Of a DNA stretch of 64,000 nt, positions 36,090 through 63,516 are shown piece by piece. Source of the stretch: an uncultured Spirochaetota bacterium. GTDB lineage: Bacteria; Spirochaetota; Spirochaetia; SZUA-6; Fen-1364. Location of the stretch: assembly GCA_963753085.1 (NCBI GenBank), contig CAVWBF010000022.1, positions 177,086 through 241,085 on the forward strand, written 5' to 3'. The notes under the pieces were generated by a model. The model searched no databases. It was not told the origin of the DNA and worked only from the letters and a program-made list of their open reading frames with translations. The translations under genes and the position numbers were made by a program. Within the stretch, counting starts at the first letter, position 1. Every line of letters begins with the position of its first letter.

Positions 36090-37928
36090 TCAGAGCACCG
36101 AAAAATAGACGGCCCCCACGGCCTGCGCGAATTGCGCAACGGTGTAGCGGCCATCATCGCGCAGTTGACGCATGAGGCCCGTTGCCGCCAGGTCATCGTC
36201 AGCGACCTCGATCGCGAGGTCAGGGGAAACGCGCGAAGCGCCCTCCCTGATGAGTGCCATGCACGCTGGGTCTTTCACGACCCGACCGAACAGCACGGGG
36301 CGCATGACGCGCACACCAAGTATCTGCTTCGTTTCCCGACACGTCACGGCAAGATACTCGCCGATTTCCCGAAAAACGTCGCGGATCGTTTCATCTCGTC
36401 CTCCCGCCGCAAGGCGCATGAGGAGCTCGAGCAATGGCTTTCGCATGTCCCGGGGCTCGGTGGCAATGGATATCGTCCCGTCCTTCAGCGTGCAATAGCC
36501 GTCTCTGAAGATCTCGTCATACAGATCGGGCCGGCTCCTGCTGAAATGCTTGAGTGCCAGACGGAAGACGCCGCTCTGGCACACGTATTTCTGAACGGTG
36601 CCGGCCAGCCCGGTATTGAAGTTGTTGATGCTTCGCGGATCATCCGCGCCGAACTCCCGCTCGGGGAGACTGCCGAGATCGATGATGTAGTTGTACACTT
36701 CGAGGGGGATCTCCGGCAGGTGTCCCGCCGGGTCGAGCCATCCCGTGCCAAGCTCGGTCCCCAAGGTAAAGGCAATGATGCCGTCGTCGGCATTCCGCTG
36801 TCCCGAAACGGCACCTTCAAGCGCCGCGGTGAATGCTGCCATGGGTCCGTCGTTGATGTTTCTGAACCTCCCCCCAGGGCGGCAGAACGCTGAAAGCTTT
36901 CGGTCGAGGTTCGTGATCTGGGCGAAATCGGATTCGAAGTCGATGGCGGGGTTGCCCCTGATCCCCCGCGTCTTGTACACCTCCCCACCCACGATCTTGT
37001 TTCGAACCACGACATCGGGAAAACACATGCCGATGGCGTCCAGCCCCGCCAGATGGGGACCGAGGTACGTTTCCAGCTTGTCGACCGCGGCCCTGATCTC
37101 CTCGTCGCGCGCCCCCGCGCCTGCCACCGAGTCGAGCCGGGAGGCGAGTGTTTCACGCCGCTTCGCCGCGGGGATGCGCTCTACCGCGGCGCGCGCCCGC
37201 CCCCACCGCGCAAGCAGAGCGATGGGGTCAACGAGCTGGCGGGATTCCGTAAACCGGGCGGGGAACCAATCGTACTCCTTGTATCCGACGATGCGCTCGT
37301 GGACACACACGATCAGCTTGATATCGGTTCCTCCGATATCCATCCCGATTGCGGCGGCTCCCGCAAGGCGGCCGGGCACTTCTTTCAGCCGGGCGCTCAG
37401 TGGGGGCCCGTTCAAAGAGGCTGACGCGGCCGCCGAAGGAGGGGCCCGACCGATATCCTCGATGAAGAAACGAAACGACGCCGTCGGCGTTGTCGCCTCG
37501 TCAAGTGCGTCCGTCATCCGTTCCGCGACGTTGAGGCAGCGTCCGTAGCCCTGGCGGCGTCTCTTTGCCACGCCGGTTCCGAAACTGTCGTCGAGCGACT
37601 GGAGGAGGGCCGTGATGCCCTTTTCAGCAACGGGCCGGTAGAACGTCAGCGATCTGCCTCCGTAGGTGGAGAGGATGTTATAGACCCGTGCCTCCAGATA
37701 TCTGCGCATGAACGCTGACTGTTCCGCACTCGCGGCATCGGGCCGCGGCAGGGAAAGGGTGAACTCCCGGGCCTCGGGCTGGTCTGCCGCGCGCAGCGTC
37801 AGTCGGACCGGGACTGCGTCGGGATGACCATCCAGGGCATCGGAGACATCGGTGATGTACACCGGCCGTCCGCTCGATGCGGCTTCAAGGAATGAGTCAA
37901 TGCGTTCAACCAGGCTCTTCTTGCTCAT
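36090..37928 (-). CDS. ASKHA-superfamily (ROK/glucokinase-like) protein with a ~190-aa N-terminal extension. Co-operonic with GRE module 1.
   Basis: 612 aa. Phosphate-1 motif AIGMDIGGTDIKLIV and later ASKHA-like blocks (FTLGTELGTGWL). Its start overlaps the activase 3' end by 23 nt. Confidence 0.55.
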   Translation of the reverse strand: MSKKSLVERIDSFLEAASSGRPVYITDVSDALDGHPDAVPVRLTLRAADQPEAREFTLSLPRPDAASAEQSAFMRRYLEARVYNILSTYGGRSLTFYRPVAEKGITALLQSLDDSFGTGVAKRRRQGYGRCLNVAERMTDALDEATTPTASFRFFIEDIGRAPPSAAASASLNGPPLSARLKEVPGRLAGAAAIGMDIGGTDIKLIVCVHERIVGYKEYDWFPARFTESRQLVDPIALLARWGRARAAVERIPAAKRRETLASRLDSVAGAGARDEEIRAAVDKLETYLGPHLAGLDAIGMCFPDVVVRNKIVGGEVYKTRGIRGNPAIDFESDFAQITNLDRKLSAFCRPGGRFRNINDGPMAAFTAALEGAVSGQRNADDGIIAFTLGTELGTGWLDPAGHLPEIPLEVYNYIIDLGSLPEREFGADDPRSINNFNTGLAGTVQKYVCQSGVFRLALKHFSRSRPDLYDEIFRDGYCTLKDGTISIATEPRDMRKPLLELLMRLAAGGRDETIRDVFREIGEYLAVTCRETKQILGVRVMRPVLFGRVVKDPACMALIREGASRVSPDLAIEVADDDLAATGLMRQLRDDGRYTVAQFAQAVGAVYFSVL

Positions 37929-38835
37929 CCAGGACCCTTTTCACTCCCGCGTTCTGCAGAACCTGTCGGAACGCGGCAAGCTCGGGCGGCGAATAGCGCC
38001 GTGAATCGCTGGGGAATGCCCATCTCTGCCCGAGGCGCCGGTACTTCGCCTCCGCGAAGGGATTGAAGTTCAACAGCTCCACGGGAGGCTGCGGCTGGAG
38101 GCCGGCGACGATTCGCCCTATTCCTTGCAGGTTGGATTCAGTCGCCGTGAGCTCCGGGATGAGCGGTATTCGCACAACGAGATTCGCCCGAACGCGGATC
38201 AGGTACTGGAGGTTCCGGAGTATCGGTACGAGGGACCACCCCAGCAGTTCCCGGTGCCGGCGCTCGTCGGCAACCTTGACATCGACGAACACCTCATCCG
38301 TCACCCGAGCCATCGCCTCCACGTGCGAAAGCCGCGCGGCCAGGCATGTCTCGATGGCCGTGCCTGCTCCCTTCTTCCGGCAGCCGGCAAGCACCTCCAC
38401 GGCAAACTCAGGCTGCAGAAGCGGCTCGCCTCCGCTCAATGTCACTCCCCCCCGGGATACGTCGAAGAAGGTCTGGTCGCGGAGCAGCTCGCTGACCGCC
38501 TCCTCAGAGCTCATCTCCCGCGCATCGAAAGCCATTGCGCCGGTCGGGCACGCCTCTACGCATCTCCCGCACTTTGTGCACCGCGTTTCGTCGACACGCA
38601 CGTCGCGCACTGAATCCGCCACGGACAGCGCCGATTCCGCACAGACGTGGAGGCACGTCCCGCAGCCGATGCACCGCGCCGCCGTATGGAACAGCCTCTG
38701 CCCGGAGACCATCCCCTCCGGATTGTGGCACCAGGGGCACCGAAGGGGGCATCCCTTGAGAAAGAGCGTGCTCCGAAGGCCCTGCCCATCATGAATGGAG
38801 AAGCGCTTGCAGTCGAACACCCAGCCGGTGGTCAT
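37906..38835 (-). CDS. Glycyl-radical enzyme activating enzyme (radical SAM, with two auxiliary ferredoxin-like 4Fe-4S clusters)
   Basis: Radical-SAM motif CPLRCPWCHNPE after FDCKRFSIHDGQGLR. Two CxxCxxCxxxCP motifs (CIGCGTCLHVC; CTKCGRCVEACP). Its ATG overlaps the GRE stop as ATGA. Confidence 0.88.
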   Translation of the reverse strand: MTTGWVFDCKRFSIHDGQGLRSTLFLKGCPLRCPWCHNPEGMVSGQRLFHTAARCIGCGTCLHVCAESALSVADSVRDVRVDETRCTKCGRCVEACPTGAMAFDAREMSSEEAVSELLRDQTFFDVSRGGVTLSGGEPLLQPEFAVEVLAGCRKKGAGTAIETCLAARLSHVEAMARVTDEVFVDVKVADERRHRELLGWSLVPILRNLQYLIRVRANLVVRIPLIPELTATESNLQGIGRIVAGLQPQPPVELLNFNPFAEAKYRRLGQRWAFPSDSRRYSPPELAAFRQVLQNAGVKRVLDEQEEPG

Positions 38836-41204
38836 GATGACAACCCATGGGTTGTGCGCTCGATGATCTCCTCCTGGAGGTCAGCTGCCAGCTCGGTATA
38901 ATAGGCGGTGTATCCGGCCACCCGCACGGTGAGGTTCCGGTACCGGTCGGGGTTCTCGCGAGCAGCCCGCAAGTCCGCTTCGTTGATGACATTGAACTGT
39001 ACATGGCTGATCTTCAGGCGAACGAACGCGCGGAGGAATTGGGAAAAGGCCTTCAATCCACGCGCGTCTGCAAACAGCTCGGGAGAGAATTTCAGGTTCA
39101 ACAGGGTTCCATTGCTGCCGAGCTTTGAATCCACCCGGGCCACTGAATTGAGCACCGCCGTTGGTCCGTTCATATCCCTTCCGTAGAGCGCGGACATCCC
39201 TCCATCGGCAAGCGGCGTTCGCGCGCGCCTGCCGTCAGGAGTCGCGCCGACGTTCTGGCCCATGGGCACGTGCGCCGAGACCGTGTACAGACCAGTGTGG
39301 TAGCGCCCCCCCCTGGCGTTGGTGTACTTCCGCAGCCCCTCCGCGAACACCCTCACCCATGTATGCGCCAGCTCGTCAACCCACTCCACGTCGTTGCCGT
39401 ACTTCGGCGCCTTGTTCACGAGCCGGTGCATCAGAATCTGGTCGGACTGGAAATCCGTTTCCATGCCCCGCAGCACTTTCTCCGCGGTCACCACCTTCTC
39501 TTCGTACACCAGCTTCTTGAGGGCGGCCAGGCTATCCGCGACGTTGGCCGGCTGGATGGCCTGGATCCCCGACAGGTTGTAGTGGGCTCCGCCGCGCGTG
39601 ACGTCGACCCCCGTGTCGATGCAATCACGGATGACGGATGAGAGAAACGGGGTGGGCAGCAGCTCGCCATGGATCCGGTCCACGGTGTCGCAGCAGCGGA
39701 TCATGCGCCCGGTGAAGTGTTCGATCTGCCGGGCGAATGCCGCTTCGAGCTGCTCGAACGTGTGGAAATCGGTAAGTCTCCCGAGGTTCAGCCCGAGGGG
39801 CTTGCGGTCCACGAGGCAGAAGCCGCCCGTCAGCGTCAGCTCGAGCGCCTTGACGAGGTTGAACATGGCAGCGTCGCTCCAGCCCAGGTTGTTTCCGTGC
39901 GTGGTCAGCTCCACGCAGCCCACGATGGCGTAGTTGCGCGCGTCGGCCTCGGTGATGCCGACCCCCCGAAGCGCCGGAATCACCGCCTGGTCGCTGAACA
40001 CCTGCGGCATTCCGCTTCCTCTTCCAATGACCCGCGAACACGCCATGAGCAGGTCGTCGGGGCTGCCTTCGAACAGCCTGGCGGAGAGATTGGGCTGGGG
40101 GAGGCCGATCAGCTCCTGGGCCCTGAGGAAAAGGAAGGAGAGCTCGTTCGATGCATCCCGGCCGGCGCCGTCCTGGCCGCCGAGGGCGACGTTGAAGCCG
40201 ATGGGGAATCCCGCGAAATACTTTGCGCTGTGCGAATTGCGCAGGTAGACGATCTGGTTGAACTTGAGCCACAACGCGCATACCAGCTCCAGGGCGCCCG
40301 GCAGGTCCAGCGCCCCCGAGTCCAGGTCCGCCCGCATGTACGGGTACAAGTACTGGTCCACGCGGCCCGGGGAGAAGGAGGAAGCGTTGGATTCCATGTG
40401 GAGAATCACGAACAGGAACCAGACCGATTGAAGGGCTTCGCGGAAAGTGCGCGGCGGACGGTCGGCCAGGCCGTCGCAGATGCGTGCCACCCCGGCAAGC
40501 TCCTCATCGGCGGTCCCCGCCGGCCCGCTCGCCAATTCGCGTGCCAGTGCCGCGTACCGCCTCATGAACGTGCGGGCGCCTTCCAGGCTGAGAATCACCG
40601 CCTCGAAGAAGCGACCCGGATCACACCGCGTGCGGGCTCGCTCCTCCGCCTCCCGCTGCAGCCCCGCGGGTCCGAGACGCAGCCACCCTTCGGCGTCCGG
40701 GCAGATGTGGCCCTGGGCATGATCCTTCTGGTTGATCTTCACGACGCGCGCAATCGCGTCGATCTCCGGGCCGATCTCTTTCCTGATGGCGTCCTCGAGG
40801 GTGTGACCGGACCAGTACGGGAGGATCTCGTCACGGAAGGTCCGCACGTCCTCCGCGCGCACGTTGAACCGATCCTGCTCGCGCGTCGGGAGCTGCTCTA
40901 TTTCCTTGTCCACCCACGATATGCCTGCCTCGGGGAACACCACCCCGGCACGCACGCCGGCCGTCCGGTTGCCCACAATGAGCTCTCCCGGGTCTATCCG
41001 GATCTTCATCTCGCTCAGGCAGGCCTGGAGTGACCTCGCTCTTCGGACGATGACCGGCTCCCCCTCCGTCTCGCGGTACACTCTCGTGATTATTCCCGCC
41101 TGTTCTATTGAAAGGAACCGCGGCTCGGCCAGCATTTCGCTCTTGAGCTGCTCGAAGCGCCCGCTCAGCGGAAGCCGCTCTATCTCTGCGACATACTCAC
41201 GCAT
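38832..41204 (-). CDS. Glycyl radical enzyme, eliminase/dehydratase type (PFL superfamily), substrate unknown: GRE 1
   Basis: 790 aa. C-terminal glycyl-radical motif TVRVAGYTAYY and active-site block IVGCVELTTHGNN (the Cys-x-Glu typical of 1,2-eliminases such as glycerol/propanediol dehydratase, CutC and HypD). Confidence 0.9.
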   Translation of the reverse strand: MREYVAEIERLPLSGRFEQLKSEMLAEPRFLSIEQAGIITRVYRETEGEPVIVRRARSLQACLSEMKIRIDPGELIVGNRTAGVRAGVVFPEAGISWVDKEIEQLPTREQDRFNVRAEDVRTFRDEILPYWSGHTLEDAIRKEIGPEIDAIARVVKINQKDHAQGHICPDAEGWLRLGPAGLQREAEERARTRCDPGRFFEAVILSLEGARTFMRRYAALARELASGPAGTADEELAGVARICDGLADRPPRTFREALQSVWFLFVILHMESNASSFSPGRVDQYLYPYMRADLDSGALDLPGALELVCALWLKFNQIVYLRNSHSAKYFAGFPIGFNVALGGQDGAGRDASNELSFLFLRAQELIGLPQPNLSARLFEGSPDDLLMACSRVIGRGSGMPQVFSDQAVIPALRGVGITEADARNYAIVGCVELTTHGNNLGWSDAAMFNLVKALELTLTGGFCLVDRKPLGLNLGRLTDFHTFEQLEAAFARQIEHFTGRMIRCCDTVDRIHGELLPTPFLSSVIRDCIDTGVDVTRGGAHYNLSGIQAIQPANVADSLAALKKLVYEEKVVTAEKVLRGMETDFQSDQILMHRLVNKAPKYGNDVEWVDELAHTWVRVFAEGLRKYTNARGGRYHTGLYTVSAHVPMGQNVGATPDGRRARTPLADGGMSALYGRDMNGPTAVLNSVARVDSKLGSNGTLLNLKFSPELFADARGLKAFSQFLRAFVRLKISHVQFNVINEADLRAARENPDRYRNLTVRVAGYTAYYTELAADLQEEIIERTTHGLSS

Positions 41205-41309: not shown

Positions 41310-42113
41310 TCAACCCGCGAGCTGCTTTTTGCGGAATTCCCTCGGAGACAAGCCCGTCTCCTTCTTGAAAATGCGGGAGAAATACCTCGCGCCGTCGAAG
41401 CCGACATGCTCGGCGATCTCCTCCACCGTCAGGCGCCGATCGAGAAGGAGAAGCTTGGTCTTGTCGATCCTGACAAGGTTGCGATAGTGCATGGGGGTCA
41501 CGCGCATCTTCCGCTTGAAGATGCGAAAAAGATAGGAGGAGCTCACCGAGATTGTTTGCGCGAGCGTCTCGATGCCGAAATCGCTTCTGTAATGCTCATG
41601 GATGTAACTGAGACAGCGTTCGACCTGGGTATCATTCTCCCGTGACCTCTCGCGGTAGCTCTGCCTGATCAGAAGGAAAAGAGTCTTGAGGCAGGAGGCG
41701 ATCACGTCACCAGCCAGGGCGCGCTTTCCGGTGAACTCGAGATAGATGATCTCGAAGAGCTCCCGCATGACGCCCCGCAGGTCCTTGAGCTTGATGGCAT
41801 GACCGAAGGAAGGACACGGGCCCAGGTCGGCCCAGATGCAGATGATTTCCTGCCGGGTGCCCAATTCGAGGTGTTCCTGGTGGGAGAGGCCGGGCGGATA
41901 GACTACGACGTCGAAGAGCGAGATGTCGATGGATTCATCACCGACCTCGATTGTTGCCTTCCCCTCGATGAAGAAGATGAGCTCGAAATAGGGATGTGAG
42001 TGTTTTTGAAAATTCCAGATGCTGCTCCTGCCGTCGAAACGCTCGCACCACTTCGCGGTCGCGCGGTCAAGGCGAAGATTTTCCAAAAAAGTGGATATCG
42101 ATTCATCCGGCAT
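41310..42113 (-). CDS. AraC-family transcriptional regulator (N-terminal cupin sensor, C-terminal HTH)
   Basis: 267 aa. Cupin-like N-terminus (HSHPYFELIFFIEGKATIE) and AraC HTH (IAEHVGFDGARYFSRIFKKETGLSPREFR). Sits directly upstream of GRE 1 on the same strand. Confidence 0.85.
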   Translation of the reverse strand: MPDESISTFLENLRLDRATAKWCERFDGRSSIWNFQKHSHPYFELIFFIEGKATIEVGDESIDISLFDVVVYPPGLSHQEHLELGTRQEIICIWADLGPCPSFGHAIKLKDLRGVMRELFEIIYLEFTGKRALAGDVIASCLKTLFLLIRQSYRERSRENDTQVERCLSYIHEHYRSDFGIETLAQTISVSSSYLFRIFKRKMRVTPMHYRNLVRIDKTKLLLLDRRLTVEEIAEHVGFDGARYFSRIFKKETGLSPREFRKKQLAG

Positions 42114-42310
42114 GCGCCGGGCCTCTCACCGAGCACAGATTACCACACCGCGGTTCAAACGGGGAGAGGTCGCCCGGCAGCGTTTTGGTTCACAATTGTT
42201 CACCTATTGGATAGTTATGGCCGTTCCATTCCCTGCTGGATACCTTACCATAGGCCAAGTCGTTAGCGCCGCAATTTTGGAAGGAGGGTCGATTATGAGC
42301 TAAAAAGTTC

Positions 42311-42377
42311 TTGCCAAGGACGAGAGAAACATGCATAATCGAAACGGTTTCATATGAAACACTTTGATGTTTCATAT
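42311..42377 (+). promoter_or_regulatory. Candidate sigma70 promoter (TTGCCA, 17 nt, CATAAT) followed by a perfect 14-bp palindromic operator GTTTCATATGAAAC (42347-42360) and a half-site GTTTCATAT (42369-42377)
   Basis: Read directly. The element lies in the AT-rich divergent region between araC-like and the ABC substrate-binding gene. An AAGGGAGG ribosome-binding site precedes the ATG at 42398. Confidence 0.4.
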
Positions 42378-42397
42378 CAATTCAAGGGAGGTGCCGT

Positions 42398-43345
42398 ATG
42401 GCAAGAATGAAGAGAGCTTTGATCATCGGGACCGTGTTGCTGTTAGCGGTGGCTTTCGGAGCGAGCGCTCAAGCCAAGTTGGTCAAGGCGGCGTTCGTCA
42501 TCTCGAACGCGGCCAATGAATCACAGGCGTTCTCGTCGAAGCAGTTCCTCAAGTTCGGGTCGCAGTTCGGCTTCGACATGTACACCTTCGACGCGAAGGG
42601 TGATACGCAGGCCGAGTCGCAGATCGTGACGAACTGCATCGCGCAGAAGTTCAAGGTCATTTTCCTGAACCCGAACGACATCAGCGCTATTGTCCCCGCC
42701 ATCATCAAGGCCAAGGCGGCTGGCATGATCGTGGGCATGTTCTCCTCCGACCTCGCGCCGGAGAACCAGAAGTACCGTGACTTCTACGCGGGTGTCAACG
42801 ATACAATGGCAGGCCAACAGGCTGCCCAGGCATTCATGAAGCACTTCCCGAGCGGAGCCAAGATCGTGGAGATCGGCGGCCAGGCGGGTCACGACGCCCA
42901 GATCAAGCGACATGATGGTTTCAATGGCGCCCAGGGGATCAAAGGTTCGAATATCCAGGTCCTCGACTACAAGGCCTGCCAGCAGTGGGCGACCGACCAG
43001 GCGCAGGCCATCATGGAAGATGACATCGTGAAGTACGGCAGCGATATCCAGGGCGTGTTCGTCCATTGGGACAACGGAGCAACCGGCGTGATCCAGGCGG
43101 CCAAGGCCGCGGGCATCACGGGCCTGTACATCGTCGGAGTGGACGGCAACCGCGCCGGCTACTACCAGGTTCAGAGCGGCGACCAGGCGGTCAGCATCGC
43201 CCAGGACTTCGTGCTCATGACCAAGACGGACCTCGGCCTCGCTCGAGACGTCCTGGCCGGCAAAAAGGTTAAGCAGATCAACTACGTCCCGCTCTTCGTC
43301 GTCGACAAGAGCTCCATCGCGAGTTTCGATCCGCCCGAGTGGTAG
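42398..43345 (+). CDS. Sugar ABC transporter periplasmic substrate-binding protein (type I PBP, ribose/monosaccharide class)
   Basis: 315 aa with a signal peptide (LIIGTVLLLAVAFGASAQA). Sequence pattern consistent with RbsB-like PBP1 binding proteins. First gene of the ABC operon. Confidence 0.8.
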   Translation: MARMKRALIIGTVLLLAVAFGASAQAKLVKAAFVISNAANESQAFSSKQFLKFGSQFGFDMYTFDAKGDTQAESQIVTNCIAQKFKVIFLNPNDISAIVPAIIKAKAAGMIVGMFSSDLAPENQKYRDFYAGVNDTMAGQQAAQAFMKHFPSGAKIVEIGGQAGHDAQIKRHDGFNGAQGIKGSNIQVLDYKACQQWATDQAQAIMEDDIVKYGSDIQGVFVHWDNGATGVIQAAKAAGITGLYIVGVDGNRAGYYQVQSGDQAVSIAQDFVLMTKTDLGLARDVLAGKKVKQINYVPLFVVDKSSIASFDPPEW

Positions 43346-43418
43346 GATCCGCATAGTCTGAAAGGCTCGTTTCGCCTCTGGCGGGACGAGCCTTGTTCTA
43401 CTATCTTCACTCAAGGAT

Positions 43419-44924
43419 GTGACCATGGAAGCAGCCGGCTCTGAGGTCATCTTGTCCATCAGGGACGTGAGCAAGTCTTTCCCCGGGGTCAAGGCCCTGG
43501 ATCGGGTCTCCATCGATTTCCGGCGCGGCACGGTGCACGGCATCGTCGGCGAAAACGGCGCGGGCAAGTCGACGTTGATGAAGATCCTGTCCGGCGTCTA
43601 CCAGAAGGACAGCGGGACGATCGAGTTCGACGGGGCGCGCGTCGAGCACACAACACCGCACCAGTCCATGCAGAGCGGGCTGGCGATCATCTACCAGGAG
43701 CTCAACCTCGTCAACACGATGAGCGTCGGGGAGAACGTCTTCCTCGGCCGGTTCAAGGAAATGAAGGGCATGAGGGGCACCCATGCCAGGGCGCGGGAGC
43801 TCCTGGACAGCATCGGCAGCACGGTGCCCACCACGAGGCTGGTATCAGAGCTTTCCGTGTCAGAGAAGCAGATGGTGGAGATCGTCAAGGCCCTGTCCTT
43901 CCAGTCGAAGCTCATCATCATGGACGAGCCCAGCTCGAGCCTCACCGCGGAAGAGATGGCCGAGCTGATCACAATCATCCGCCAGCTCAAGGAGAAGGGG
44001 ATCTCGATCATCTACATCAGCCACAAGCTCGACGAGATCTTCCAGTTCTGCGACGTGGTGAGCGTGATGCGGGACGGACGGGTGGTGGACACCAAGGCTG
44101 TGGCCGAGTTCACGCGCAACGAGCTGATCTCCAAGATGGTCGGCCGCACGATAGAGAACGAGTATCCTCCGCGCCCTCACAGCGTGGGAGAGGTCGTGAT
44201 GGAGGTCCGTTCCATCAAGACCCACAAGCTCCACGACATCTCGTTCAAGCTTCACAAGGGCGAGATCCTGGGGCTTGTCGGCCTGGTCGGTGCGGGCCGC
44301 ACCGAGATCGTCCGGGCCATCTACGGCGCTGACAAGGCACGCGGACACGAGGTCCTCCTGGGCGGCAAGCCCGCGACCATTCGCAACCCCAGGCATGCCA
44401 AGGACTTCGGCATCGGGCTGATTCCGGAAGACCGCAAGCTCCAGGGCCTCGTCCTGCCCTTTTCCGTTGAATCGAACATTTCCATGGGGAGCATAGGGAA
44501 GTTCAGCCGGCTCGGCTTCATCCGCCGTTCGCTGGAAAAGGGCATCGGGGCCCGCCAGGTGGAGGCCCTGTCGATCAAGACGCCCTCGACACGGGTTGCC
44601 GTGAACAACCTCTCCGGCGGCAACCAGCAGAAAGTCATCGTCGGGCGATGGCTGGAGATCTCACCGCAGATCTTCATCATGGACGAGCCGACCCGGGGCA
44701 TCGACGTCGGCGCCAAGTACGAGATCTACCTCCTGATGAAAAGGATCGTCGAGGCGGGAGGATCGATCATCCTCATCTCCTCCGAGCTTCCCGAGGTGCT
44801 CAACATGGCAAACCGTGTGCTGACGATATTCGAGGGACGGGTCACCGGGGAGTTCTCCCCTGAGAAGACCCCGGTTGACGAGATCATGAAGGCCGCGCTG
44901 GGCCTCGAGGGAGGCGCTGCATAG
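43419..44924 (+). CDS. Sugar ABC transporter ATP-binding protein with two fused nucleotide-binding domains (RbsA/MglA-like)
   Basis: 501 aa. Walker A GENGAGKST, signature LSGGNQQKV, and a second nucleotide-binding domain with GLVGAGRTE. The true start may be the ATG at 43425. Confidence 0.9.
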   Translation: MTMEAAGSEVILSIRDVSKSFPGVKALDRVSIDFRRGTVHGIVGENGAGKSTLMKILSGVYQKDSGTIEFDGARVEHTTPHQSMQSGLAIIYQELNLVNTMSVGENVFLGRFKEMKGMRGTHARARELLDSIGSTVPTTRLVSELSVSEKQMVEIVKALSFQSKLIIMDEPSSSLTAEEMAELITIIRQLKEKGISIIYISHKLDEIFQFCDVVSVMRDGRVVDTKAVAEFTRNELISKMVGRTIENEYPPRPHSVGEVVMEVRSIKTHKLHDISFKLHKGEILGLVGLVGAGRTEIVRAIYGADKARGHEVLLGGKPATIRNPRHAKDFGIGLIPEDRKLQGLVLPFSVESNISMGSIGKFSRLGFIRRSLEKGIGARQVEALSIKTPSTRVAVNNLSGGNQQKVIVGRWLEISPQIFIMDEPTRGIDVGAKYEIYLLMKRIVEAGGSIILISSELPEVLNMANRVLTIFEGRVTGEFSPEKTPVDEIMKAALGLEGGAA

Positions 44925-44926
44925 CC

Positions 44927-45919
44927 ATGGCAGAAGTTGCGATGCGCGTGGGAAGGAACCCGGTGGCCAGGGCCGCGCAGGCCTTCTTCCGGGACTACCT
45001 GGTCCTGGTGATGATCGCGGTGCTGGTCACCATCACGGCGATCGTAGAACCCAAGTTCCTCAATCCGCGGAACCTGACCAACATCATGCGCCAGTTCGGG
45101 CCTCTCATGATGGTCTCACTCGGCATGACCTTCGTCATCATCGGCGGCTTCATTGACCTCTCGGTGGCCGGCATCATAAACCTCGTCGCCGTGGTCACCA
45201 TCTCCCTGATCGGTCCGTTGGGGCAGGTACCCGCTCTCCTGGCCGGCCTGACAATCGGGGCCGCATGCGGGGCGCTCAACGCTGCCGCCATCCTGACCTC
45301 GGGGGCTCTCACCCAGGCTGAAGCGCTGTTCCTCACCTTCGGCATGAGCACGGTGTTCTCGGCCTTTGCCCTGCTGTACAGCGGGGGCATGACGATGCAC
45401 TTCTGGGACATCAAGACGAGCAAGGCGATGTTCGAGACGATCGGTGCCGGGACCGTGGGCCCGTTCTCCGTTTCGTTCGTGATTTTCCTGGTGGTGCTTC
45501 TGATTCTCTGGATCTTCCAGACCAAGACGACAGAGGGACGGGCCATCAGCCTCACGGGAGGCAACAAGACGGCTGCGCGCCTCAGCGGCATCCGAATATT
45601 GCGGAGCATTTTCGTGATCTACGTGGTCTGCGGCCTGATGACAGGGGTGGGGGCCATCGTCCTGTTCTCCCGGATCACCACGGCCGCCCCCGTCATCGGC
45701 GCGGGCTACGAAACCAACGCCATCCTTTCGGTCGTCGTCGGAGGCACCACGCTGAAAGGGGGCAAGGGGAGCGTCCTGCGCACCGTGATGGGCGTGCTCC
45801 TTGTCATCCTCATGTCCAATTGCCTTGACCTCCTTGGTGTCTCGACCTACCTCCAGGTGGTTACGAAGGGCGCAATCCTGATCCTCGCGATCTGGCTCGA
45901 CAACCGCAAGCAGGTGTAG
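44927..45919 (+). CDS. Sugar ABC transporter permease (RbsC-like, BPD_transp_2)
   Basis: 330 aa, polytopic membrane protein directly after the ATPase. Confidence 0.85.
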   Translation: MAEVAMRVGRNPVARAAQAFFRDYLVLVMIAVLVTITAIVEPKFLNPRNLTNIMRQFGPLMMVSLGMTFVIIGGFIDLSVAGIINLVAVVTISLIGPLGQVPALLAGLTIGAACGALNAAAILTSGALTQAEALFLTFGMSTVFSAFALLYSGGMTMHFWDIKTSKAMFETIGAGTVGPFSVSFVIFLVVLLILWIFQTKTTEGRAISLTGGNKTAARLSGIRILRSIFVIYVVCGLMTGVGAIVLFSRITTAAPVIGAGYETNAILSVVVGGTTLKGGKGSVLRTVMGVLLVILMSNCLDLLGVSTYLQVVTKGAILILAIWLDNRKQV

Positions 45920-45930
45920 GAGGTACGGCC

Positions 45931-46920
45931 ATGGCAGGCAACGCAATCGGGGCGAGGATGACGGGAAACGGAGTCAGCGCGAGGATATACTCGTTTGTCA
46001 TGAGGCAGAAGGCATTCGTCGCCATCATCGTGATGCTGGCCGTGATGCTCTTCTCCCCCAGACATTTCTACACCGCCTACAACCTCCTCGACATGCTCAA
46101 CTCCACGTCGATCCTTCTCATCCTCTCCTTCGGGGTCACGCTCACCATCATCGCGGGCGGCTGCGACCTCTCCATCGGGGGGATCCTCGTGGTCTCTGGC
46201 ATCCTGTCCATCAAGCTCCAGGACGTGATGCCCATGGAGCTTGCCATCGCCGCCGCCGTGATCTTCGGCGTGGTGGTCGGCTTCGTGAACGGATTCCTCT
46301 CCGTCCACCAGAAGACGGAGCCGTTCATCATCACACTCGGCATGGGCCTCCTGCTCACCGGCGTGGCCCAGCAGCTCACCGACGCCCATCCGGTGCCCGC
46401 GAAGAATCCCGCCTTCATGGTGATCGGGAACGGGGATTTCCACGGGGTGCCCAACCTCGTGATAATCACGGTGGTCTGCTTCGCCCTGGCGTTCTGGCTC
46501 ATGCGCTACACCCAGTTCGGCCGCAACCTCTACGCGATCGGCGGGGACTACGAGGTTGCGCGCTACTCGGGCATCCCGGTCATCCGAACGAAGTGGATTG
46601 CCTTCGTGATCAGCGGCGGCGCTGCCGGCCTGGCAGGAATGCTTCTCTCTTCCAAGCTGAACACCGGCTCCTCGATCTACGGCGACCTGACCGCCCTCGT
46701 GGTGAACTGCGGCGTCGTGGTCGGGGGAACCTCGTTCGCGGGCGGCATCGGAGGAATCCCGCAATCGGGCCTCGGCCTCCTGGTGTTCGGCATGCTCGAC
46801 AACGTGATGAACATGCTCGCGATCAAGTCCTACTACCAGGTATTGTTGAAGGGCGCGGTCATCGTGGCGATCATCTGGCTCGATTGCTTCGCTCAGAAGA
46901 GGAAGCGCGAGTTTGTCTGA
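45931..46920 (+). CDS. Sugar ABC transporter permease (second RbsC-like subunit)
   Basis: 329 aa, a paralogous permease. Last gene of the transporter operon. Confidence 0.85.
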   Translation: MAGNAIGARMTGNGVSARIYSFVMRQKAFVAIIVMLAVMLFSPRHFYTAYNLLDMLNSTSILLILSFGVTLTIIAGGCDLSIGGILVVSGILSIKLQDVMPMELAIAAAVIFGVVVGFVNGFLSVHQKTEPFIITLGMGLLLTGVAQQLTDAHPVPAKNPAFMVIGNGDFHGVPNLVIITVVCFALAFWLMRYTQFGRNLYAIGGDYEVARYSGIPVIRTKWIAFVISGGAAGLAGMLLSSKLNTGSSIYGDLTALVVNCGVVVGGTSFAGGIGGIPQSGLGLLVFGMLDNVMNMLAIKSYYQVLLKGAVIVAIIWLDCFAQKRKREFV

Positions 46921-46946: not shown

Positions 46947-47810
46947 TCATGCAAGCGCGTTTTCCAGGGCCTGCCGCATGACCTCTTTGTCGGGCTCGAG
47001 GCCTGTCCACATCGTGATGTTCAGGGCTGCCTGGTTGATCAACATCTTCAGACCGCTCTGCCAGCGCACGCCGCGCTTGTCAGCCTCCCGGAGGAAGGGA
47101 GTGGAGGCAGGATTGGGTATGACATCCTGCACGTACATCCTGGAGGTGATCGTATCGTAGTCGATGTCGGGCTTGTCGTTGACATGAGGATACAGGCCGA
47201 TCGAAGTTGCGTTGACCACGATGTCCGTGTCCGCGGGAATCTTGAGTTTCCCTGCCCAGGGAACATACTCGGTGGCAACCCGGGTGTTTTCTTTCAGGAT
47301 CCTGATCAGGCTCTCGGCCAGCGCGACGTCCCTGGGGATGTTCACGATTGTCAGTTTTCGGGCGCCGGCAAGGGCAAGCTCGACACAGATGGCCCGGGAA
47401 GCCCCGCCCGCGCCCAGGACCACCACGCTCTTCCCGGACGGGTCCACCCCGGCGCCCTCCAAGGCTATCATGAAGCCCTTCCCGTCCGTGTTCTCACCCT
47501 TCAGAACCCCGTTCTCATTGATGATGGTATTGACGGCGCCGATCAGCCGGGCGCTGGGAGCCACGTCGTCGAGATACTTGAGGACCTCGATCTTGTGGGG
47601 GATGGTGCAGTTGATGCCGCGCATTTTCATGGCTTTCAGACCCTTGATGGCGTCGCCCAGGGAGGCCGCCTCGACATCAATGGTCAGAAAGCGCCATCGC
47701 TCCAGTCCCAGGCTGCGGAAGGCCGCCTCCTGGATCACGACGCCGGGGTTCTCAGCCACCGGGTGGCCAAAGACACCCACCAGGTTGTCCAGGTAGTTCT
47801 GTTCCTTCAT
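46947..47810 (-). CDS. Shikimate/quinate 5-dehydrogenase family oxidoreductase (AroE-like)
   Basis: Starts at the internal Met (MKEQNYLDNLVGVFGHPV...) after a GGAGGA ribosome-binding site. About 287 aa with NAD(P) motif VVLGAGGASRAI and an N-terminal substrate domain typical of AroE, YdiB or RifI. Confidence 0.8.
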   Translation of the reverse strand: MKEQNYLDNLVGVFGHPVAENPGVVIQEAAFRSLGLERWRFLTIDVEAASLGDAIKGLKAMKMRGINCTIPHKIEVLKYLDDVAPSARLIGAVNTIINENGVLKGENTDGKGFMIALEGAGVDPSGKSVVVLGAGGASRAICVELALAGARKLTIVNIPRDVALAESLIRILKENTRVATEYVPWAGKLKIPADTDIVVNATSIGLYPHVNDKPDIDYDTITSRMYVQDVIPNPASTPFLREADKRGVRWQSGLKMLINQAALNITMWTGLEPDKEVMRQALENALA

Positions 47811-47834: not shown

Positions 47835-47863
47835 TTGACACTTCGTACTGATCGCAATAGAAT
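47835..47863 (+). promoter_or_regulatory. Candidate sigma70 promoter for the GRE 2 operon: TTGACA, 17 nt, TAGAAT
   Basis: Consensus -35 with a near-consensus -10 and 17-nt spacing, in the divergent region between the aroE-like gene and GRE activase 2. Confidence 0.35.
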
Positions 47864-47885: not shown

Positions 47886-48794
47886 GTGCCTGCGGACAAA
47901 GACATGATTTTTAACATACAACGATTCTCCACGCACGATGGGCCGGGCATACGTACGATAGTCTTCTTCAAAGGGTGCGCTTTGCACTGTCCCTGGTGCG
48001 AGAATCCCGAGAGCCAATCCTTCAGGCAGGAGCTTGCCTGGGACGAGAGGAAGTGCATCGGCTGCCTCGACTGCGTGCACGCGGCAAAGGACGGAGAAGC
48101 GGTGGCCGAAAAGGGCAGGCCGGTGTTTCACCGCCGGAAGATCGGTGACCCTGGCGCGCTTGCCAGCGTGTGCCCCACTGGAGCCTTGGCCGTCCTGGGG
48201 GAGGAAACAACGGTTTCCCAGATCGTGCAGGAAGTCCAGAAGGACGTTGCCTTCTATAGAAAGAGCGGCGGCGGGGTCACCATTTCAGGCGGCGAGCCCT
48301 ACGATCAGCCCGCTTTCCTGCTGGAGCTCCTGAATGCGCTGGGCGGGATTGGCGTTACCGTAGCAATAGAGACCACCTTGAGCGTTCCCTGGAGCGCAAT
48401 CGAGCCCAGCCTCCCGGGGGTAGAGGCATTCCTCGTGGACATCAAGCATGCCAACGCGCAGACGCTGAGAAGCGTTACGGGCGGAAATCTTCCCCTCATC
48501 GTCGGCAACTTGCGGAAGCTGGAAAGCCTGCACGCCCGGGTGACCATCCGCGTCCCCGTGATTCCCGGTTTCAACGACGCGGGATCGGATATGGCCGACA
48601 TCGTGGATCTGGCGGCGTCACTGGAGAACGTGAGGGAGATCCACTTCCTGCCGTTTCACACGCTAGGCATCGGCAAGTATCGCCTGCTTGGAAAGGAATA
48701 CCGTTTTTTGAAGGAAGCCGGGCCCGCGGAAGATATGCAAGAATGGATCGACCTTGCTCGCAGCAAGGGGCTGGAAGCCGGCATTGGAGGATAG
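47886..48794 (+). CDS. Glycyl-radical enzyme activating enzyme 2 (radical SAM with auxiliary 4Fe-4S clusters)
   Basis: CALHCPWCENPE radical-SAM motif after FNIQRFSTHDGPGIR. CIGCLDCVHAA and a second cysteine cluster. GTG start, though the true start may be the ATG at 47904. Confidence 0.88.
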   Translation: MPADKDMIFNIQRFSTHDGPGIRTIVFFKGCALHCPWCENPESQSFRQELAWDERKCIGCLDCVHAAKDGEAVAEKGRPVFHRRKIGDPGALASVCPTGALAVLGEETTVSQIVQEVQKDVAFYRKSGGGVTISGGEPYDQPAFLLELLNALGGIGVTVAIETTLSVPWSAIEPSLPGVEAFLVDIKHANAQTLRSVTGGNLPLIVGNLRKLESLHARVTIRVPVIPGFNDAGSDMADIVDLAASLENVREIHFLPFHTLGIGKYRLLGKEYRFLKEAGPAEDMQEWIDLARSKGLEAGIGG

Positions 48795-48795
48795 A

Positions 48796-51210
48796 GTGGA
48801 AGCAACCCGAATCAAGCCCATGGTGTCGGACCGGATCGCAAAGCAGAAGGACCGGCTCCTGAAGACAAGGCCGACCGTGTGCGTCGAGCGCGCCCGCATC
48901 TACACCGAGTGCTACCGCCGCAACCAGGACCAACCCCTCGTCATTACCCGGGCGCTGGCACTCGAAGAGACGCTTCGCGGGATGAGCATCTACATCGATG
49001 ACGGGGAGCTCACCGTCGGCAACCAGTCCTCCAGGCCGCGGGCAGCGCCCATTTTCCCCGAGTACGCGGTGGGGTGGATCCTCAATGAGCTGGACGCGTT
49101 TGCCGGGAGGCCGGGAGATGCTTTCTACCCGACGGAAGAGGCCAAGGCGGCGCTGCGCGAGATCTGCCCATGGTGGCAGGGAAAGACTCTTTTCGAAAAG
49201 GGTACCGCCCTGCTGCCTCCCCTCATGCGGGAGATCCACGATGCGGAGATCATCCGAGCGGAGGGCAACCTGACCTCGGGTGACGGCCATATTGCCGCGA
49301 ACTTTCCCCGGATCCTTTCGGAAGGCCTGGGCGGGTACCGCCAGCGTGTTGCCCGCAAGCGGGAAGCACTGGACCTCTCCGACTGGGCGGACCTCAGAAA
49401 GGAGCAGTTCTACCGCGCCGTGGACATCGCGCTCACCGGGCTTTCCGCCTTCATACGTCGATTCGAGGAACGGGCCCGCCTCATGGGCGCGCAGGAAAGC
49501 GATCCGGCCCGGCGGGAGGAGCTGGAGACGATCTCCCGAAACTGCGCGGTCATTGCCGAACGGCCGCCTGAGGATTTCCACCAGGCGCTTCAGCTTGTCT
49601 ACTTTGTCCATCTGGTTCTCCAGATCGAGAGCAACGGGCACTCGGTTTCTCTTGGCCGGGCTGACCAGTACCTGTACCCGTTCTATGCCCGTGACGTGGA
49701 GGCGGGGCGGCTCAAAGAGGATTTCGCTCGAGAGCTCCTGGAAAGCACGTGGCTGAAGCTCTTCTCCATCAACAAGATACGGTCCTGGTCGCATACCCGG
49801 TTTTCCGCGGGAAGCCCGTTGTACCAGAACGTGACCATCGGCGGGCAGACCCGCCGGGAAAAGGACGCGGTAAATCCGCTCAGCTTCCTGATCCTCGAGT
49901 CGGTGGGAAATCTCCGCCTCCCCCAGCCAAACCTCAGCGTACGCTACCACCGGGAGCTGGGCGATGACTTCCTCTCCGCATGCATCTGCGTGATCGAGAA
50001 GGGCTTCGGGATGCCTGCCTTCAAAAATGATGAGATCATCATCCCCGCCCTCATCAGGCAGGGGGTTGAACGGGAGGACGCTTTCGATTACTCGGCCATC
50101 GGGTGCATCGAGGTGGCCGTGCCCGGCAAGTGGGGCTACCGGTGCACCGGCATGAGCTTCCTCAATTTCCCCCGGGTGCTGCTTGCAGCGCTTCGAAACG
50201 GCCATGACAGCAGGTCCGGAAAGACCTTCTGTCCCGGCACGGGAAGTTTGGAGAACTTCTCCGGCTTCGACGACGTGATGAAAGCCTGGGAAAAACAGGT
50301 GAAGTTCTACGCAGGCGCCACCGTTGCCATCGACACCGCGGTGGACACCGCGTTGGAGGAAAACGTTCCCGATATCCTGTGCTCCGCCCTGGTGGATGAC
50401 TGCATCGATCGGGGGAAGACCCTGAAGGAGGGAGGAGCGAAATACGATTTCATCTCCGGCCTCCAGGTCGGGATCGCCAACCTGGGAAACTCACTTGCCG
50501 CCATCAGGAAGCTCGTCTTCGAGGAAAAGAAAATCGGCAAGGCGGAGCTCATGGAGGCGCTGGAGAAAAACTTCGAAGGCGCGGCGGGGGAGAAGATCCG
50601 CCAGCTCCTCCTCAATCGCGCTCCCAAGTACGGAAACGACGATGACTCGGTGGACCTGCTCCTGCGGGACGCCTACACGGTGTTCATCGACGAGCTCTCC
50701 CGGTACCACAACACGCGCTATGGCAGGGGCCCCATCGGGGGGACCTATTACGCCGGGACCTCCAGCATCTCAGCCAACGTTCCCTCGGGGTCAGTGGTTC
50801 CGGCAACGCCGGACGGCCGCAAAGCCTGGACGCCCCTGGCGGAGGGATGCTCCCCATCGTCGGGAACGGACACCCGGGGACCCACCGCCGTCTTCAAGTC
50901 CGTCGCAAAGCTCCCGACGGAGAAGATCTGCGGGGGGGTGCTCCTGAACCAGAAGCTTTCCCCCGCGGCAATTGCCTCCCCGGCGGACAAGGAGAAGCTC
51001 GCCGCGCTCCTCCGCGCATTCTTCGATGACCTGAAGGGCTGGCACGTGCAGTACAACATCGTCTCGCGCCAGACTCTGCTCGCCGCCCAGAAGGCCCCGG
51101 AGAGCTACCGGGACCTCGTGGTGCGCGTGGCCGGCTATTCGGCCCTCTTCACGACACTTGCGCCGGAGACGCAGAACGATATCATCGCCCGTACGGAGCA
51201 CAGCCTGTAA
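48796..51210 (+). CDS. Glycyl radical enzyme, eliminase/dehydratase type, substrate unknown: GRE 2, a paralog of GRE 1
   Basis: About 805 aa. Glycyl-radical motif VVRVAGYSALF and active-site block AIGCIEVAVPGKWG (Cys-x-Glu). GTG start 5 nt after a GGAGG ribosome-binding site and immediately after the activase stop. The ORF track begins earlier, at 48754. Confidence 0.9.
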   Translation: MEATRIKPMVSDRIAKQKDRLLKTRPTVCVERARIYTECYRRNQDQPLVITRALALEETLRGMSIYIDDGELTVGNQSSRPRAAPIFPEYAVGWILNELDAFAGRPGDAFYPTEEAKAALREICPWWQGKTLFEKGTALLPPLMREIHDAEIIRAEGNLTSGDGHIAANFPRILSEGLGGYRQRVARKREALDLSDWADLRKEQFYRAVDIALTGLSAFIRRFEERARLMGAQESDPARREELETISRNCAVIAERPPEDFHQALQLVYFVHLVLQIESNGHSVSLGRADQYLYPFYARDVEAGRLKEDFARELLESTWLKLFSINKIRSWSHTRFSAGSPLYQNVTIGGQTRREKDAVNPLSFLILESVGNLRLPQPNLSVRYHRELGDDFLSACICVIEKGFGMPAFKNDEIIIPALIRQGVEREDAFDYSAIGCIEVAVPGKWGYRCTGMSFLNFPRVLLAALRNGHDSRSGKTFCPGTGSLENFSGFDDVMKAWEKQVKFYAGATVAIDTAVDTALEENVPDILCSALVDDCIDRGKTLKEGGAKYDFISGLQVGIANLGNSLAAIRKLVFEEKKIGKAELMEALEKNFEGAAGEKIRQLLLNRAPKYGNDDDSVDLLLRDAYTVFIDELSRYHNTRYGRGPIGGTYYAGTSSISANVPSGSVVPATPDGRKAWTPLAEGCSPSSGTDTRGPTAVFKSVAKLPTEKICGGVLLNQKLSPAAIASPADKEKLAALLRAFFDDLKGWHVQYNIVSRQTLLAAQKAPESYRDLVVRVAGYSALFTTLAPETQNDIIARTEHSL

Positions 51211-51226
51211 CCGGAGGGAACGGGGC

Positions 51227-52199
51227 ATGGAAAAGCTTCTCTGCGGCGTCGACCTGGGAGGCACCAAGCTCGCCGCCTGCCTGATGACGCCGGGGGGCAG
51301 GATCGTTGACCGGGAGGTGGTCTTCGATCACGCCGGCAAGGACGAGATGGAAGTCGTGCGGAGGATCCGTGACCTTGTGGACACGCTCCTCACGCGCGGA
51401 GGCCTGTCCGTGGGGGATATCGAGGGAATCGGGGTCGGGTTTGCCGGACACCTGCGGTTTCGAGACGGGGTCACCATCACGACCTCCAACTACAAGGGCT
51501 TCAAGATCAAGAACTTTCCGCTCCGCGCGGCTGTCGAAGGGAGGTTTTCGACCCGGGTTGTCGTTGACAACGATGCCAACGCCCAGGGCCTTGCGGAGTA
51601 TCTTTTCGGCGCCGGCAAGGGTTGCGGACCGTCCATGATCTTCGTGACTCTCAGCACGGGAATCGGGGCGGGCATCATCCTGAACGGCAGGCTCTACCGG
51701 GGGATGACGGGCACCGCCGGTGAGGTGGGGCACATGATCGTGAATACGCAGAGCGACCAGGTCTGCGGCTGCGGCAATCACGGGTGCTGGATGGCGCATG
51801 CGAGCGGCCTTGCGCTTCCCCAGGTGGTGCGGAAGAAGAGGCGGGAGGGGCTTGCGACCAGGCTGTCGCTGTCCGAGCGCGAATGGGAGACCATCGACGG
51901 AAAGTCACTCGGGGAAGGGCTTCGCGAGCAATGACGCGCTGTGCCGGGCGGTCGTCCGGGAATACGCGGACTACTCCGGCATCGGGCTGTATAACCTCTT
52001 CCAGATCTTCAACCCCGATGTCTTTGTCCTGGGCGGCGGCCTGATGAGCTGGGGCGACTTTTTTCTCGATGGGATACGACGGAAGTTCCGGGAGATGGTC
52101 CGGGAGATGCTCGTCGATCCCGTGCGGATTCTGCCCTCCACCCTTCAGCAGGACGCTGGCGTAATAGGGGCAGCCGCGCTACTCTTGGAGAAGGAATGA
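51227..52199 (+). pseudogene. ROK-family sugar kinase or regulator-like protein, interrupted by an apparent single-base frameshift near 51905-51925
   Basis: N-terminal part MEKLLCGVDLGGTKLAACL and GHMIVNTQSDQVCGCGNHGCWMAHASG (ROK zinc motif) in frame 2. The C-terminal part ALCRAVVREYADYSGIGLYNLFQIFNPDVFVLGGGL...AGVIGAAALLL is in frame 3. The break falls at the GGGG in GGGGAAGGG. Its stop overlaps the deoR-like ATG as ATGA. Confidence 0.6.
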
Positions 52200-52939
52200 A
52201 CAAGAGACAGCGGCGCATCATCGACTCGCTGAACGGCAGCGCCATGACGTCGGTCAACGAGCTTTCCCGGCTCCTCAACGTCTCCGCGGTGACAATCCGG
52301 CAGGACCTGACCCTCCTGGAGGAGGAGGGGTTTCTCCGGAGAGTGCACGGAGGCGCCGTCCTGGAGAGCGCTGACGACATCTCCAAGCGGCTCGTCATGA
52401 ACTACGAGAAGAAGCAGCGGATTGCGCGCGCCGCCGCGGAGCACGTGGGGGAAGGGGAGTCGATCTTCATCGAAGCGGGGTCCACCAACGCGATCCTCGT
52501 GAAGGAGCTGGGCAAGCGGGAAGGCGTCACCATCATCACGTCCAACGTGTTCATTGCCCGGCAGCTGAAGAAAAACGAGCACGCCTCCATCATCCTCCTG
52601 GGAGGACTCTACCAGCATGAAAGCGAAAGCCTCGTGGGGAAGCTCGCGAAGCTCTGCCTGGACAACGTCAATTTCACCAAGGCCTTCATCGGCGTTGACG
52701 GGTTCACGAAGGAGGCCGGGTTCACGAGCACCGACATGATGCGCGCCGAGATATCCGCCCAGATCGTGAGGAAAGGCGCCGAGGTGTTCGTCGTGACTGA
52801 CTCCAGCAAGTTCGGCAAGGTCCAGCTGACGAACCTGTTTTATCCGCGCGACATCCGCTGCCTCATCACTGACGACGGCATCCCGCCAGCCGACAAGGCG
52901 TACCTCGAGGAGAACGGCGTGGAGGTGATCATCGCCTGA
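52196..52939 (+). CDS. DeoR-family transcriptional regulator (HTH plus sugar-phosphate-binding DeoR C-terminal domain)
   Basis: 247 aa with HTH SVNELSRLLNVSAVTIRQDLTLLEEEG and the DeoR C-terminal effector domain. Confidence 0.85.
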   Translation: MNKRQRRIIDSLNGSAMTSVNELSRLLNVSAVTIRQDLTLLEEEGFLRRVHGGAVLESADDISKRLVMNYEKKQRIARAAAEHVGEGESIFIEAGSTNAILVKELGKREGVTIITSNVFIARQLKKNEHASIILLGGLYQHESESLVGKLAKLCLDNVNFTKAFIGVDGFTKEAGFTSTDMMRAEISAQIVRKGAEVFVVTDSSKFGKVQLTNLFYPRDIRCLITDDGIPPADKAYLEENGVEVIIA

Positions 52940-55793: not shown

Positions 55794-55885
55794 GGAATAT
55801 AGCTTTCGAATTAAGATTAATAGTCTACAATACGAAAGTCAAGCTGGCCTGCTGACGCATAAAGTGAGGAGCCCGGCTCGCGCGC

Positions 55886-60233: not shown

Positions 60234-60281
60234 GCGTCTTCCGTTGTGTGCCACTGTAGAGCGGGATGCTCCGGGTTTCAA

Positions 60282-63125: not shown

Positions 63126-63141
63126 GAAAAGAGGCACGTAC

Positions 63142-63504: not shown

Positions 63505-63516
63505 AGAGCCGCTCCC

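Follow-up and report, generated by a model that had tools for sequence, protein, structure and literature searches.

Among the described systems closest to the locus analysed here is a glycyl radical enzyme pathway that has been named anhydroglycolysis (Ma et al. 2024 JACS, as summarised in PMC13450708, PMC12441222). In this pathway YbiW converts 1,5-anhydroglucitol-6-phosphate to 1-deoxyfructose-6-phosphate, and PflD performs the same conversion on 1,5-anhydromannitol-6-phosphate (PMC13450708, PMC12441222). The E. coli regulator YciT has a palindromic recognition motif and binding sites ahead of ybiUVWY and of fsaA, and deletion of yciT raises expression, on the log2 scale, by 7.7 for ybiY, 7.0 for ybiU, ~3 for ybiW and 1.8 for fsaA (PMC8464067). 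Reg-Seq combined with DNA-affinity mass spectrometry places YciT, acting as a repressor, at about -5 of the ybiY promoter, which is ~100 bp off the ChIP-exo position, as the preprint remarks (bioRxiv 10.1101/2025.05.13.653802). Our literature search found no paper linking YciT to anhydroglycolysis.

The stretch of DNA analysed here, 64 kb in length and called the window in what follows, holds a gene cluster with two glycyl radical enzymes, each with its own activase (Table 1). Among solved structures the best match of GRE2 is E. coli YbiW, with 60% identity over 802 aa; the glycyl motif RVAGYS is conserved, and GCIE of GRE2 aligns with Cys441/Glu443 of YbiW (residue roles per PMC13450708). By homology, the sugar of the cluster would thus be a 1,5-anhydrohexitol broken down by glycyl radical enzymes of the YbiW/PflD type. 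We consider it very probable that the palindromes described below are operators of the DeoR-family protein encoded in the cluster, and that they control three units of a PTS-independent form of anhydroglycolysis, a proposal that draws on sequence comparison and on analogy with YciT.

Table 1. Genes, predicted promoters and candidate regulator boxes of the cluster, in window coordinates.
Feature	Position	Strand	Remark
Unknown gene	36090-37928	-	
GRE activase	37906-38835	-	
PflD-like GRE1	38832-41204	-	best match PflD
AraC-family regulator	41310-42113	-	divergent from ABC operon
Promoter-like TTGCCA-17-CATAAT, ABC operon	42311-42339	+	10/12 match
YciT-type box 1, GTTTCATATGAAAC	42347-42360 (core 42348-42359)		PWM 18.2
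Inner inverted repeat ATATGAAACA / TGTTTCATAT, loop CTTTGA	42352-42377	+	possible RNA hairpin
YciT-type box 2, degenerate, core TTTCATATCAAT	42368-42383 (core 42370-42381)		PWM 7.8
ABC sugar transporter operon (SBP, ATPase, two permeases), target operon 1	42398-46920	+	Pfam
Shikimate-DH-like gene	46947-47810	-	
Promoter TTGACA-17-TAGAAT, activase-GRE2-ROK-DeoR operon	47835-47863	+	
Degenerate YciT-type box TTTCATTCGTAA	47868-47879		candidate autoregulatory site; PWM 7.1
Radical-SAM GRE activase	47904-48794	+	
YbiW-like GRE2	48754-51210	+	
ROK kinase, frameshifted	51158-52199	+	
DeoR/YciT-like regulator	52196-52939	+	HTH_DeoR and DeoRC domains
RPE-like, RmlD-like, Gfo/Idh/MocA (levoglucosan-dehydrogenase-like) operon, target operon 3	55744-52972	-	
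Site-2 proximal box TTTCATATGAAA	55782-55793		leader of RPE-like operon; PWM 17.2
Site-2 middle box TTTCGAATTAAG	55804-55815		overlaps predicted -10 and start site; PWM 5.2
Predicted promoter TTGACT-17-TAATCT, RPE-like operon	55814-55842	-	read from sequence
Site-2 distal box TACAATACGAAA (+ strand), TTTCGTATTGTA in gene orientation	55826-55837		overlaps -35
MFS gene	55886-57496	-	

The first-pass annotation had drawn attention to a perfect 14-bp palindrome following a candidate -10 of the SBP gene, to a half-site 22 nt further on and to a repeat of the core upstream of the operon of RPE-like, RmlD-like and Gfo/Idh/MocA genes. All three observations hold, and its gene calls for this operon and for the ABC operon proved correct on re-check. 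The core of the palindrome, TTTCATATGAAA, has exactly two identical copies in the window, which lie on opposite strands, each ahead of an operon's first gene; at both of them a GGGAGG Shine-Dalgarno sequence stands 26 nt downstream and the start codon is 37-38 nt away. The half-site is GTTTCATAT at 42369-42377, whose TTTC starts exactly 22 nt after the TTTC of box 1, and when read as a whole 12-mer it matches the core in 10 of 12 positions. A search of the window for the core with at most two mismatches returned four sites where 0.47 were expected, a count that none of 100 shuffles reached, and TTTC-N4-GAAA occurs only three times in the 64 kb. As the G+C content of the window is ~64%, we estimate the chance expectation of an exact AT-rich 12-mer like this one at ~2e-4. 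When the literature was searched for the 12-mer, nothing but cloning primers and unrelated sequences came up.

The box scores in Table 1 come from a scan of the whole window with a PWM that was built only from environmental GRE2-related loci, without any E. coli sequence, and box 1 is the top match of the window. The scan gave two further matches, at 11371 (7.9) and at 57717 (7.2, coding), both at chance level. The latter, TTTCGACCGAAA at 57717-57728, is the sole other TTTC-N4-GAAA in the window; it has a GC-rich centre, sits within a peptidase M15-like coding region and is most likely due to chance. In a first-order Markov null one outlier in 200 runs equalled the real top score, and we therefore rely on the dinucleotide-shuffle statistics and on the comparative data instead.

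Box 1 lies ~8 nt past the -10 of the ABC operon promoter and would thus overlap the likely transcription start. Orthologous SBP leaders keep the equivalent promoter as TTGACA-17-TATAAT, and the equivalent box is found ~50-57 nt upstream of the SBP start. Box 2 follows 22 bp, or two helical turns, downstream of box 1, and its left half is kept in orthologues. The earlier linkage of two operons through a shared box stands, but the number of sites had been underestimated: a box ahead of the activase gene had been missed, and the site upstream of the RPE-like operon (site 2) is an array of three boxes.

The missed box begins 4 nt past the -10 of the activase promoter and also faces the divergent shikimate-DH-like gene. 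Its PWM score alone is not significant, while its position and sequence are kept as TTTCACTCGTAA in two related loci, L001 and L002, which also keep the promoter (TTGACA-17-TAAAAT/TAGAGT), and it is identical to repeat 4 of a four-box array in a third locus (L041). The activase ORF had been listed from a GTG at 47886. The conserved N-terminus of its orthologues, MIFNI, begins at the ATG at 47904, and with this as the real start the box ends 24 nt ahead of it. At site 2 the three boxes span the promoter, the middle one exactly 22 bp and the distal one exactly 44 bp from the proximal one, and in gene orientation the region reads TTGAC-TTTCGTATTGTA-N10-CTTAATTCGAAA-N10-TTTCATATGAAA. L001, which among the loci of this gene order is the closest relative, keeps the distal box as TTTCATATCCAA, in the same place and overlapping the same TTGACT, and the proximal box as CTTCATATGAAG, with 44 bp between them; its version of the promoter is TTGACT-17-TATTCT. 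A consensus promoter scanner made no call for the site-2 promoter. By score, the box ahead of the activase gene and the middle and distal boxes of site 2 are weak candidates, which are put forward for their position and conservation.

The activase, GRE2, ROK kinase and DeoR genes form one operon. When 80 loci with GRE2 relatives were compared, from Spirochaetota, Bacteroidota, Bacillota, Victivallales and other lineages, the nearest being Spirochaetota metagenome-assembled genomes, these four genes turned out to be the conserved core, and their order is kept in most of the 80. In four loci (L005, L006, L009 and L011) the operon continues beyond DeoR with the RPE-like, RmlD-like and Gfo genes, an orthologous ABC transporter adjoins the GRE2 locus in another four (L018, L034, L036 and L055), and in L018 and L036 a PflD-like GRE1 adjoins as well. 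These arrangements in relatives argue that all the units of the window are functionally linked. Exact copies of the 12-mer number 23, spread over 20 of the 80 loci, and all of them are located at most 2.5 kb upstream of the GRE operon. Allowing up to two mismatches and at most 200 nt upstream of the activase, a box is found in 38 of 48 loci with a DeoR gene compared to 2 of 16 without (Fisher p = 3.2e-6, with kinship among the loci ignored). Where two boxes are adjacent in related loci, they are 22 bp apart in 13 of 16 pairs.

Four spirochaete loci carry a perfect ACTTTCATATGAAAGT box (L006 at 7867, L007 at 7826, L009 at 1339 and L011 at 3564) ~40 nt upstream of a separate operon for a GATase1-like protein, an SBP_bac_1 protein and a permease, with a LacI-family gene between this operon and the activase. 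In these loci the YciT regulon would take in a second type of ABC transporter.

A second comparison drew on 78 loci with orthologues of the SBP, of which 49 extended far enough upstream for analysis. In 21 of the 49, the 220 nt ahead of the SBP gene held a box with a PWM score of at least 10, compared to 16 of 1136 background windows (p = 6e-22). The closest relatives keep the whole layout of -35, -10, box 1, box 2 and Shine-Dalgarno sequence, and in other genomes orthologues of the transporter are linked to GRE1/GRE2 clusters. Other SBP lineages place the box against the -35 or have a LacI-type operator instead, and the Firmicutes leaders (L018, L034 and L036) show weak boxes only; site 1, the pair of boxes ahead of the SBP gene, is thus conserved within lineages and not universally. 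The LacI-type operator, ATGTAATCGAATACAT with an upstream GATTACAT half-site, is found in nine loci (L141-L145, L150, L152, L163 and L164) that have no YciT box upstream of the SBP gene, which places the same transporter under a different regulator family.

The DeoR protein consists of an N-terminal HTH domain (PF08220, E = 7.9e-15) and a C-terminal DeoRC sensor domain (PF00455, E = 4.7e-48). Its best NCBIfam model is YciT, with 250 bits and E = 1.8e-74, and the AgaR (173 bits), GlpR, SrlR and DeoR models score far below this. The 250 bits fall short of the curated cutoff of 450 for the YciT model, but as this is a narrow model of the 'exception' type, the missed cutoff concerns strict equivalence and not homology; with E. 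coli YciT itself the protein shares 44% identity over 245 aa (E = 8e-68). We propose this protein as the most likely cognate repressor of the boxes, judging from its relatives and from the company the boxes keep. The earlier suggestion of a common repressor, with the DeoR protein as a candidate, is accordingly supported by the comparative data and by the experiments on the E. coli homologue.

The PWM, which contains no E. coli sequence, was cross-checked against E. coli. The box ACTTTCGAATGAAAGT occurs in the ybiY-fsaA intergenic region at a location that agrees with the Reg-Seq site of YciT, and boxes of the same type also precede ybiV and ybiU, the ybiU box having a weak partner 22 bp away. 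At six ChIP-exo peaks the best PWM match lies close to the peak centre (1 bp at pdeR, yfcV, sixA and rdcA, 2 bp at dmsA and 12 bp at yjiT). The ybiV and ybiY peaks, the two strongest of the pathway, are 163 and 110 bp off their boxes (L081, NC_000913.3 859079-863560), and no box at all was found at the ompX peak. A shift caused by ChIP-exo coordinates from another reference version is ruled out, as the six other peaks confirm the conversion.

What else could account for the recurring palindrome? The intergenic regions are AT-richer than the window average and one TTTC-N4-GAAA falls in coding sequence (57717), as one would expect if an AT-rich palindrome had merely recurred in AT-rich intergenic DNA. 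The shuffles never matched the observed count, however, and the equal Shine-Dalgarno distance at both sites, the 22-bp phase and a position kept across phyla all speak against it, so that we put the probability of chance recurrence at practically nil and take it as refuted by the comparative data. Binding by another regulator of the cluster is also very improbable, if slightly less so. The ROK protein, which had been named as a second candidate repressor, and the AraC-family protein are both encoded in the cluster; the AraC gene is divergent from the ABC operon, with which it has an intergenic region in common, and AraC homologues are often linked to SBP/GRE1 loci. The suggestion of the ROK protein does not survive closer analysis, since it is a glucokinase-type enzyme, frameshifted in the window, whose ROK domain starts at ORF residue 29. 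The intact 322-aa orthologue in L001 has ROK glucokinase as its best model and aligns to residues 83-383 of NagC only, and the N-terminal winged helix of the NagC/Mlc/XylR type (~80 aa) is absent ahead of the ROK domain; without an HTH the protein cannot be the repressor. As for the AraC protein, none of the 80 GRE2 loci encodes a homologue, whereas most of them carry the motif, and sites of AraC-type regulators are usually direct repeats. The motif is, moreover, bound by YciT in E. coli. We therefore reject both proteins as binders of the boxes and favor the DeoR protein.

A third alternative concerns site 1 alone, and it is the only one to which we give some weight: additionally or instead, the sequence could form a hairpin in the 5′ UTR of the SBP mRNA. 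The facing halves of boxes 1 and 2 make a perfect 10-bp stem (42352-42361 with 42368-42377), with a predicted fold of -9.8 kcal/mol (z = -2.16). The covariation at this site is strong: among 18 orthologous leaders 92% of the cells are paired and both sides have changed in 6 of the 10 pairs (AU/GC/GU/UG), including some G-U wobble pairs that are non-complementary as DNA; none of 500 shuffles reached the observed values, and slid controls gave 31-47% pairing. The box pair of the closest SBP orthologues has degenerate outer half-sites, whereas its inner halves covary like a hairpin, a pattern that a pure protein-binding model does not predict and that suggests, at the level of sequence, a hairpin constraint on top of protein binding. 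Unrelated stem-loops at the same leader position in other lineages also fit the idea of such an element, which could stabilise the 5′ end of the mRNA or serve as a stem-loop with a translational or regulatory role, with the likeness to a DNA box being partly a by-product. On the other hand, the palindromic box pair and the kinship of the sequences confound the covariation. Adjacent copies of a palindrome automatically form an inverted repeat, and template-switch mutation in quasi-palindromes can give concerted changes without selection. The site sequence is also the exact consensus of the DNA motif bound by YciT in E. coli. A scan with Rfam of the window and three related loci gave no family match at the gathering score, only a spurious one of E = 0.2 near site 1. 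Finally, the leaders of the 55782 and 47868 boxes have no significant fold (z = +0.36 and z = -0.64, respectively), which means that RNA structure cannot explain the common motif and that the DNA box is the common feature. Taken together we regard the hairpin as a tentative proposal, and operators for the DeoR protein as the preferred explanation of the boxes.

A different covarying stem is present ~70 nt upstream of the SBP start in nine other loci (L101, L103-L107, L113, L140 and L153), with the variants GTGGG/CCCAC, GTGAG/CTCAC and GCGGG/CCCGC. These leaders have a second hairpin in which UUUCUGG pairs with the Shine-Dalgarno sequence CCAGGAGG (z = -3.1 and -2.8). Rfam has no match for these stems, which could be an uncharacterised translational control element.

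We suggest the following model. Dimers of the regulator would bind 12-14-bp boxes of the consensus cTTTCATATGAAAg, placed on or just past the core promoters of the ABC transporter unit, the activase-GRE2-ROK-DeoR unit and the RPE-like/RmlD-like/Gfo unit. With a period of 22 bp the boxes would be on one face of the DNA, where a higher oligomer could bind them cooperatively. At the three promoters they lie over the -35, over the -10/+1 or at the beginning of the transcribed region, and from these positions bound regulator should block RNA polymerase and repress all three units; the regulatory mechanism would be conventional repression by promoter occlusion, of a kind that is already known. As the regulon includes the operon encoding the regulator, through the box ahead of the activase gene, the protein would also control itself, and the weakest box standing at its own operon would permit such autoregulation. 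Effectors of DeoR-family proteins are usually phosphorylated pathway intermediates, and the regulator would probably be released by a phosphorylated 1,5-anhydrohexitol or by 1-deoxyfructose-6-phosphate. ABC uptake together with the ROK kinase would take the place that the PTS has in the E. coli route. The first-pass annotation had predicted one regulon for uptake and modification of one sugar; the single regulon is supported by the comparative data and is larger than predicted, and the sugar would, by homology, be a 1,5-anhydrohexitol.

The model implies that YciT, which is poorly understood in E. coli, could be part of a multi-phylum lineage of DeoR-type regulators dedicated to anhydroglycolysis, and it would tie an environmental gene cluster of high G+C content to this recently described radical-enzyme pathway. 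The common box furthermore offers a practical route to more genes of the pathway, such as transporters, a kinase replacing the PTS and three unassigned enzymes. It is conceivable, though we lean against it, that the site-1 pair is both a YciT operator and a selected hairpin and that the regulon marks a PTS-independent, extended route for anhydro sugars. If true, the uncharacterised RPE-like, RmlD-like and levoglucosan-dehydrogenase-like enzymes would supply the YbiW/PflD radical step with a different anhydro or deoxy sugar, such as 1,5-anhydrofructose.

Some further features of the window deserve mention. The ROK gene carries a frameshift, with the switch near 51912-51922: relative to the intact orthologue in L001, residues 1-231 are encoded in one frame and residues 228-322 in the next. 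Either the gene is a pseudogene or the assembly is in error here; a genuine frameshift would mean that the kinase step of the pathway does not work in this genome. The AraC-family gene heads the unit of the PflD-like GRE1 and its activase, with 42114-42310 as its intergenic region. Its homologues often accompany SBP/GRE1 loci in metagenomes, and the protein may thus provide another regulatory input, independent of the first and perhaps meant for the mannitol isomer. At the end of the window (62484-63825), after two SDR genes, are genes for two BMC-domain shell proteins and an EutN/CcmL vertex protein. These microcompartment genes, near which there is no YciT box, may have to do with processing hydroxyacetone, propanediol or aldehydes after the pathway proper. 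An unrelated palindrome with the core ATAGCGCTAT occurs twice, at 60419-60428 and, in the extended form TATATAGCGCTATATA, at 60511-60526, between the gene of a regulator with a GntR-type HTH and a periplasmic-binding domain (59139-60281, minus strand) and an SDR gene (60564-61328). The extended copy overlaps the -10 of TTGACA(60488-60493)-17-TATATA, and the palindrome is probably the operator of this GntR-HTH regulator.

Compared with anhydroglycolysis in E. coli, the cluster has in common a YbiW-like GRE2 and a PflD-like GRE1, each with an activase of its own. It differs in the entry of the sugar, which in E. coli is phosphorylated by the PTS and here would pass through an ABC importer and a ROK kinase, and in the extra RPE-like, RmlD-like, levoglucosan-dehydrogenase-like and shikimate-dehydrogenase-like enzymes; an aldolase of the FsaA type was looked for in vain within the window. 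The regulators share their domain architecture, the TTTC-N4-GAAA half-sites and, as core target, a YbiW-type GRE with its activase, and the box overlaps the transcription start in both systems, YciT acting there as a repressor. While yciT is unlinked to the GRE genes in E. coli, the regulator is here encoded within the GRE operon, and the remaining targets are the ABC transporter, the ROK kinase and the RPE-like/RmlD-like/Gfo operon instead of ybiU, ybiV and fsaA. The boxes of this 64% G+C host, which is probably related to Spirochaetota, have ATAT at the centre where those of E. coli have GAAT/ATTC, and unlike the E. coli YciT sites they stand in 22-bp phased arrays of two or three. The E. 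coli regulators DeoR, GlpR and AgaR use multiple phased operators around the promoter, bind as oligomers and respond to sugar phosphates. The arrays described here resemble theirs in the use of multiple phased operators and differ from them in the sequence of the box.
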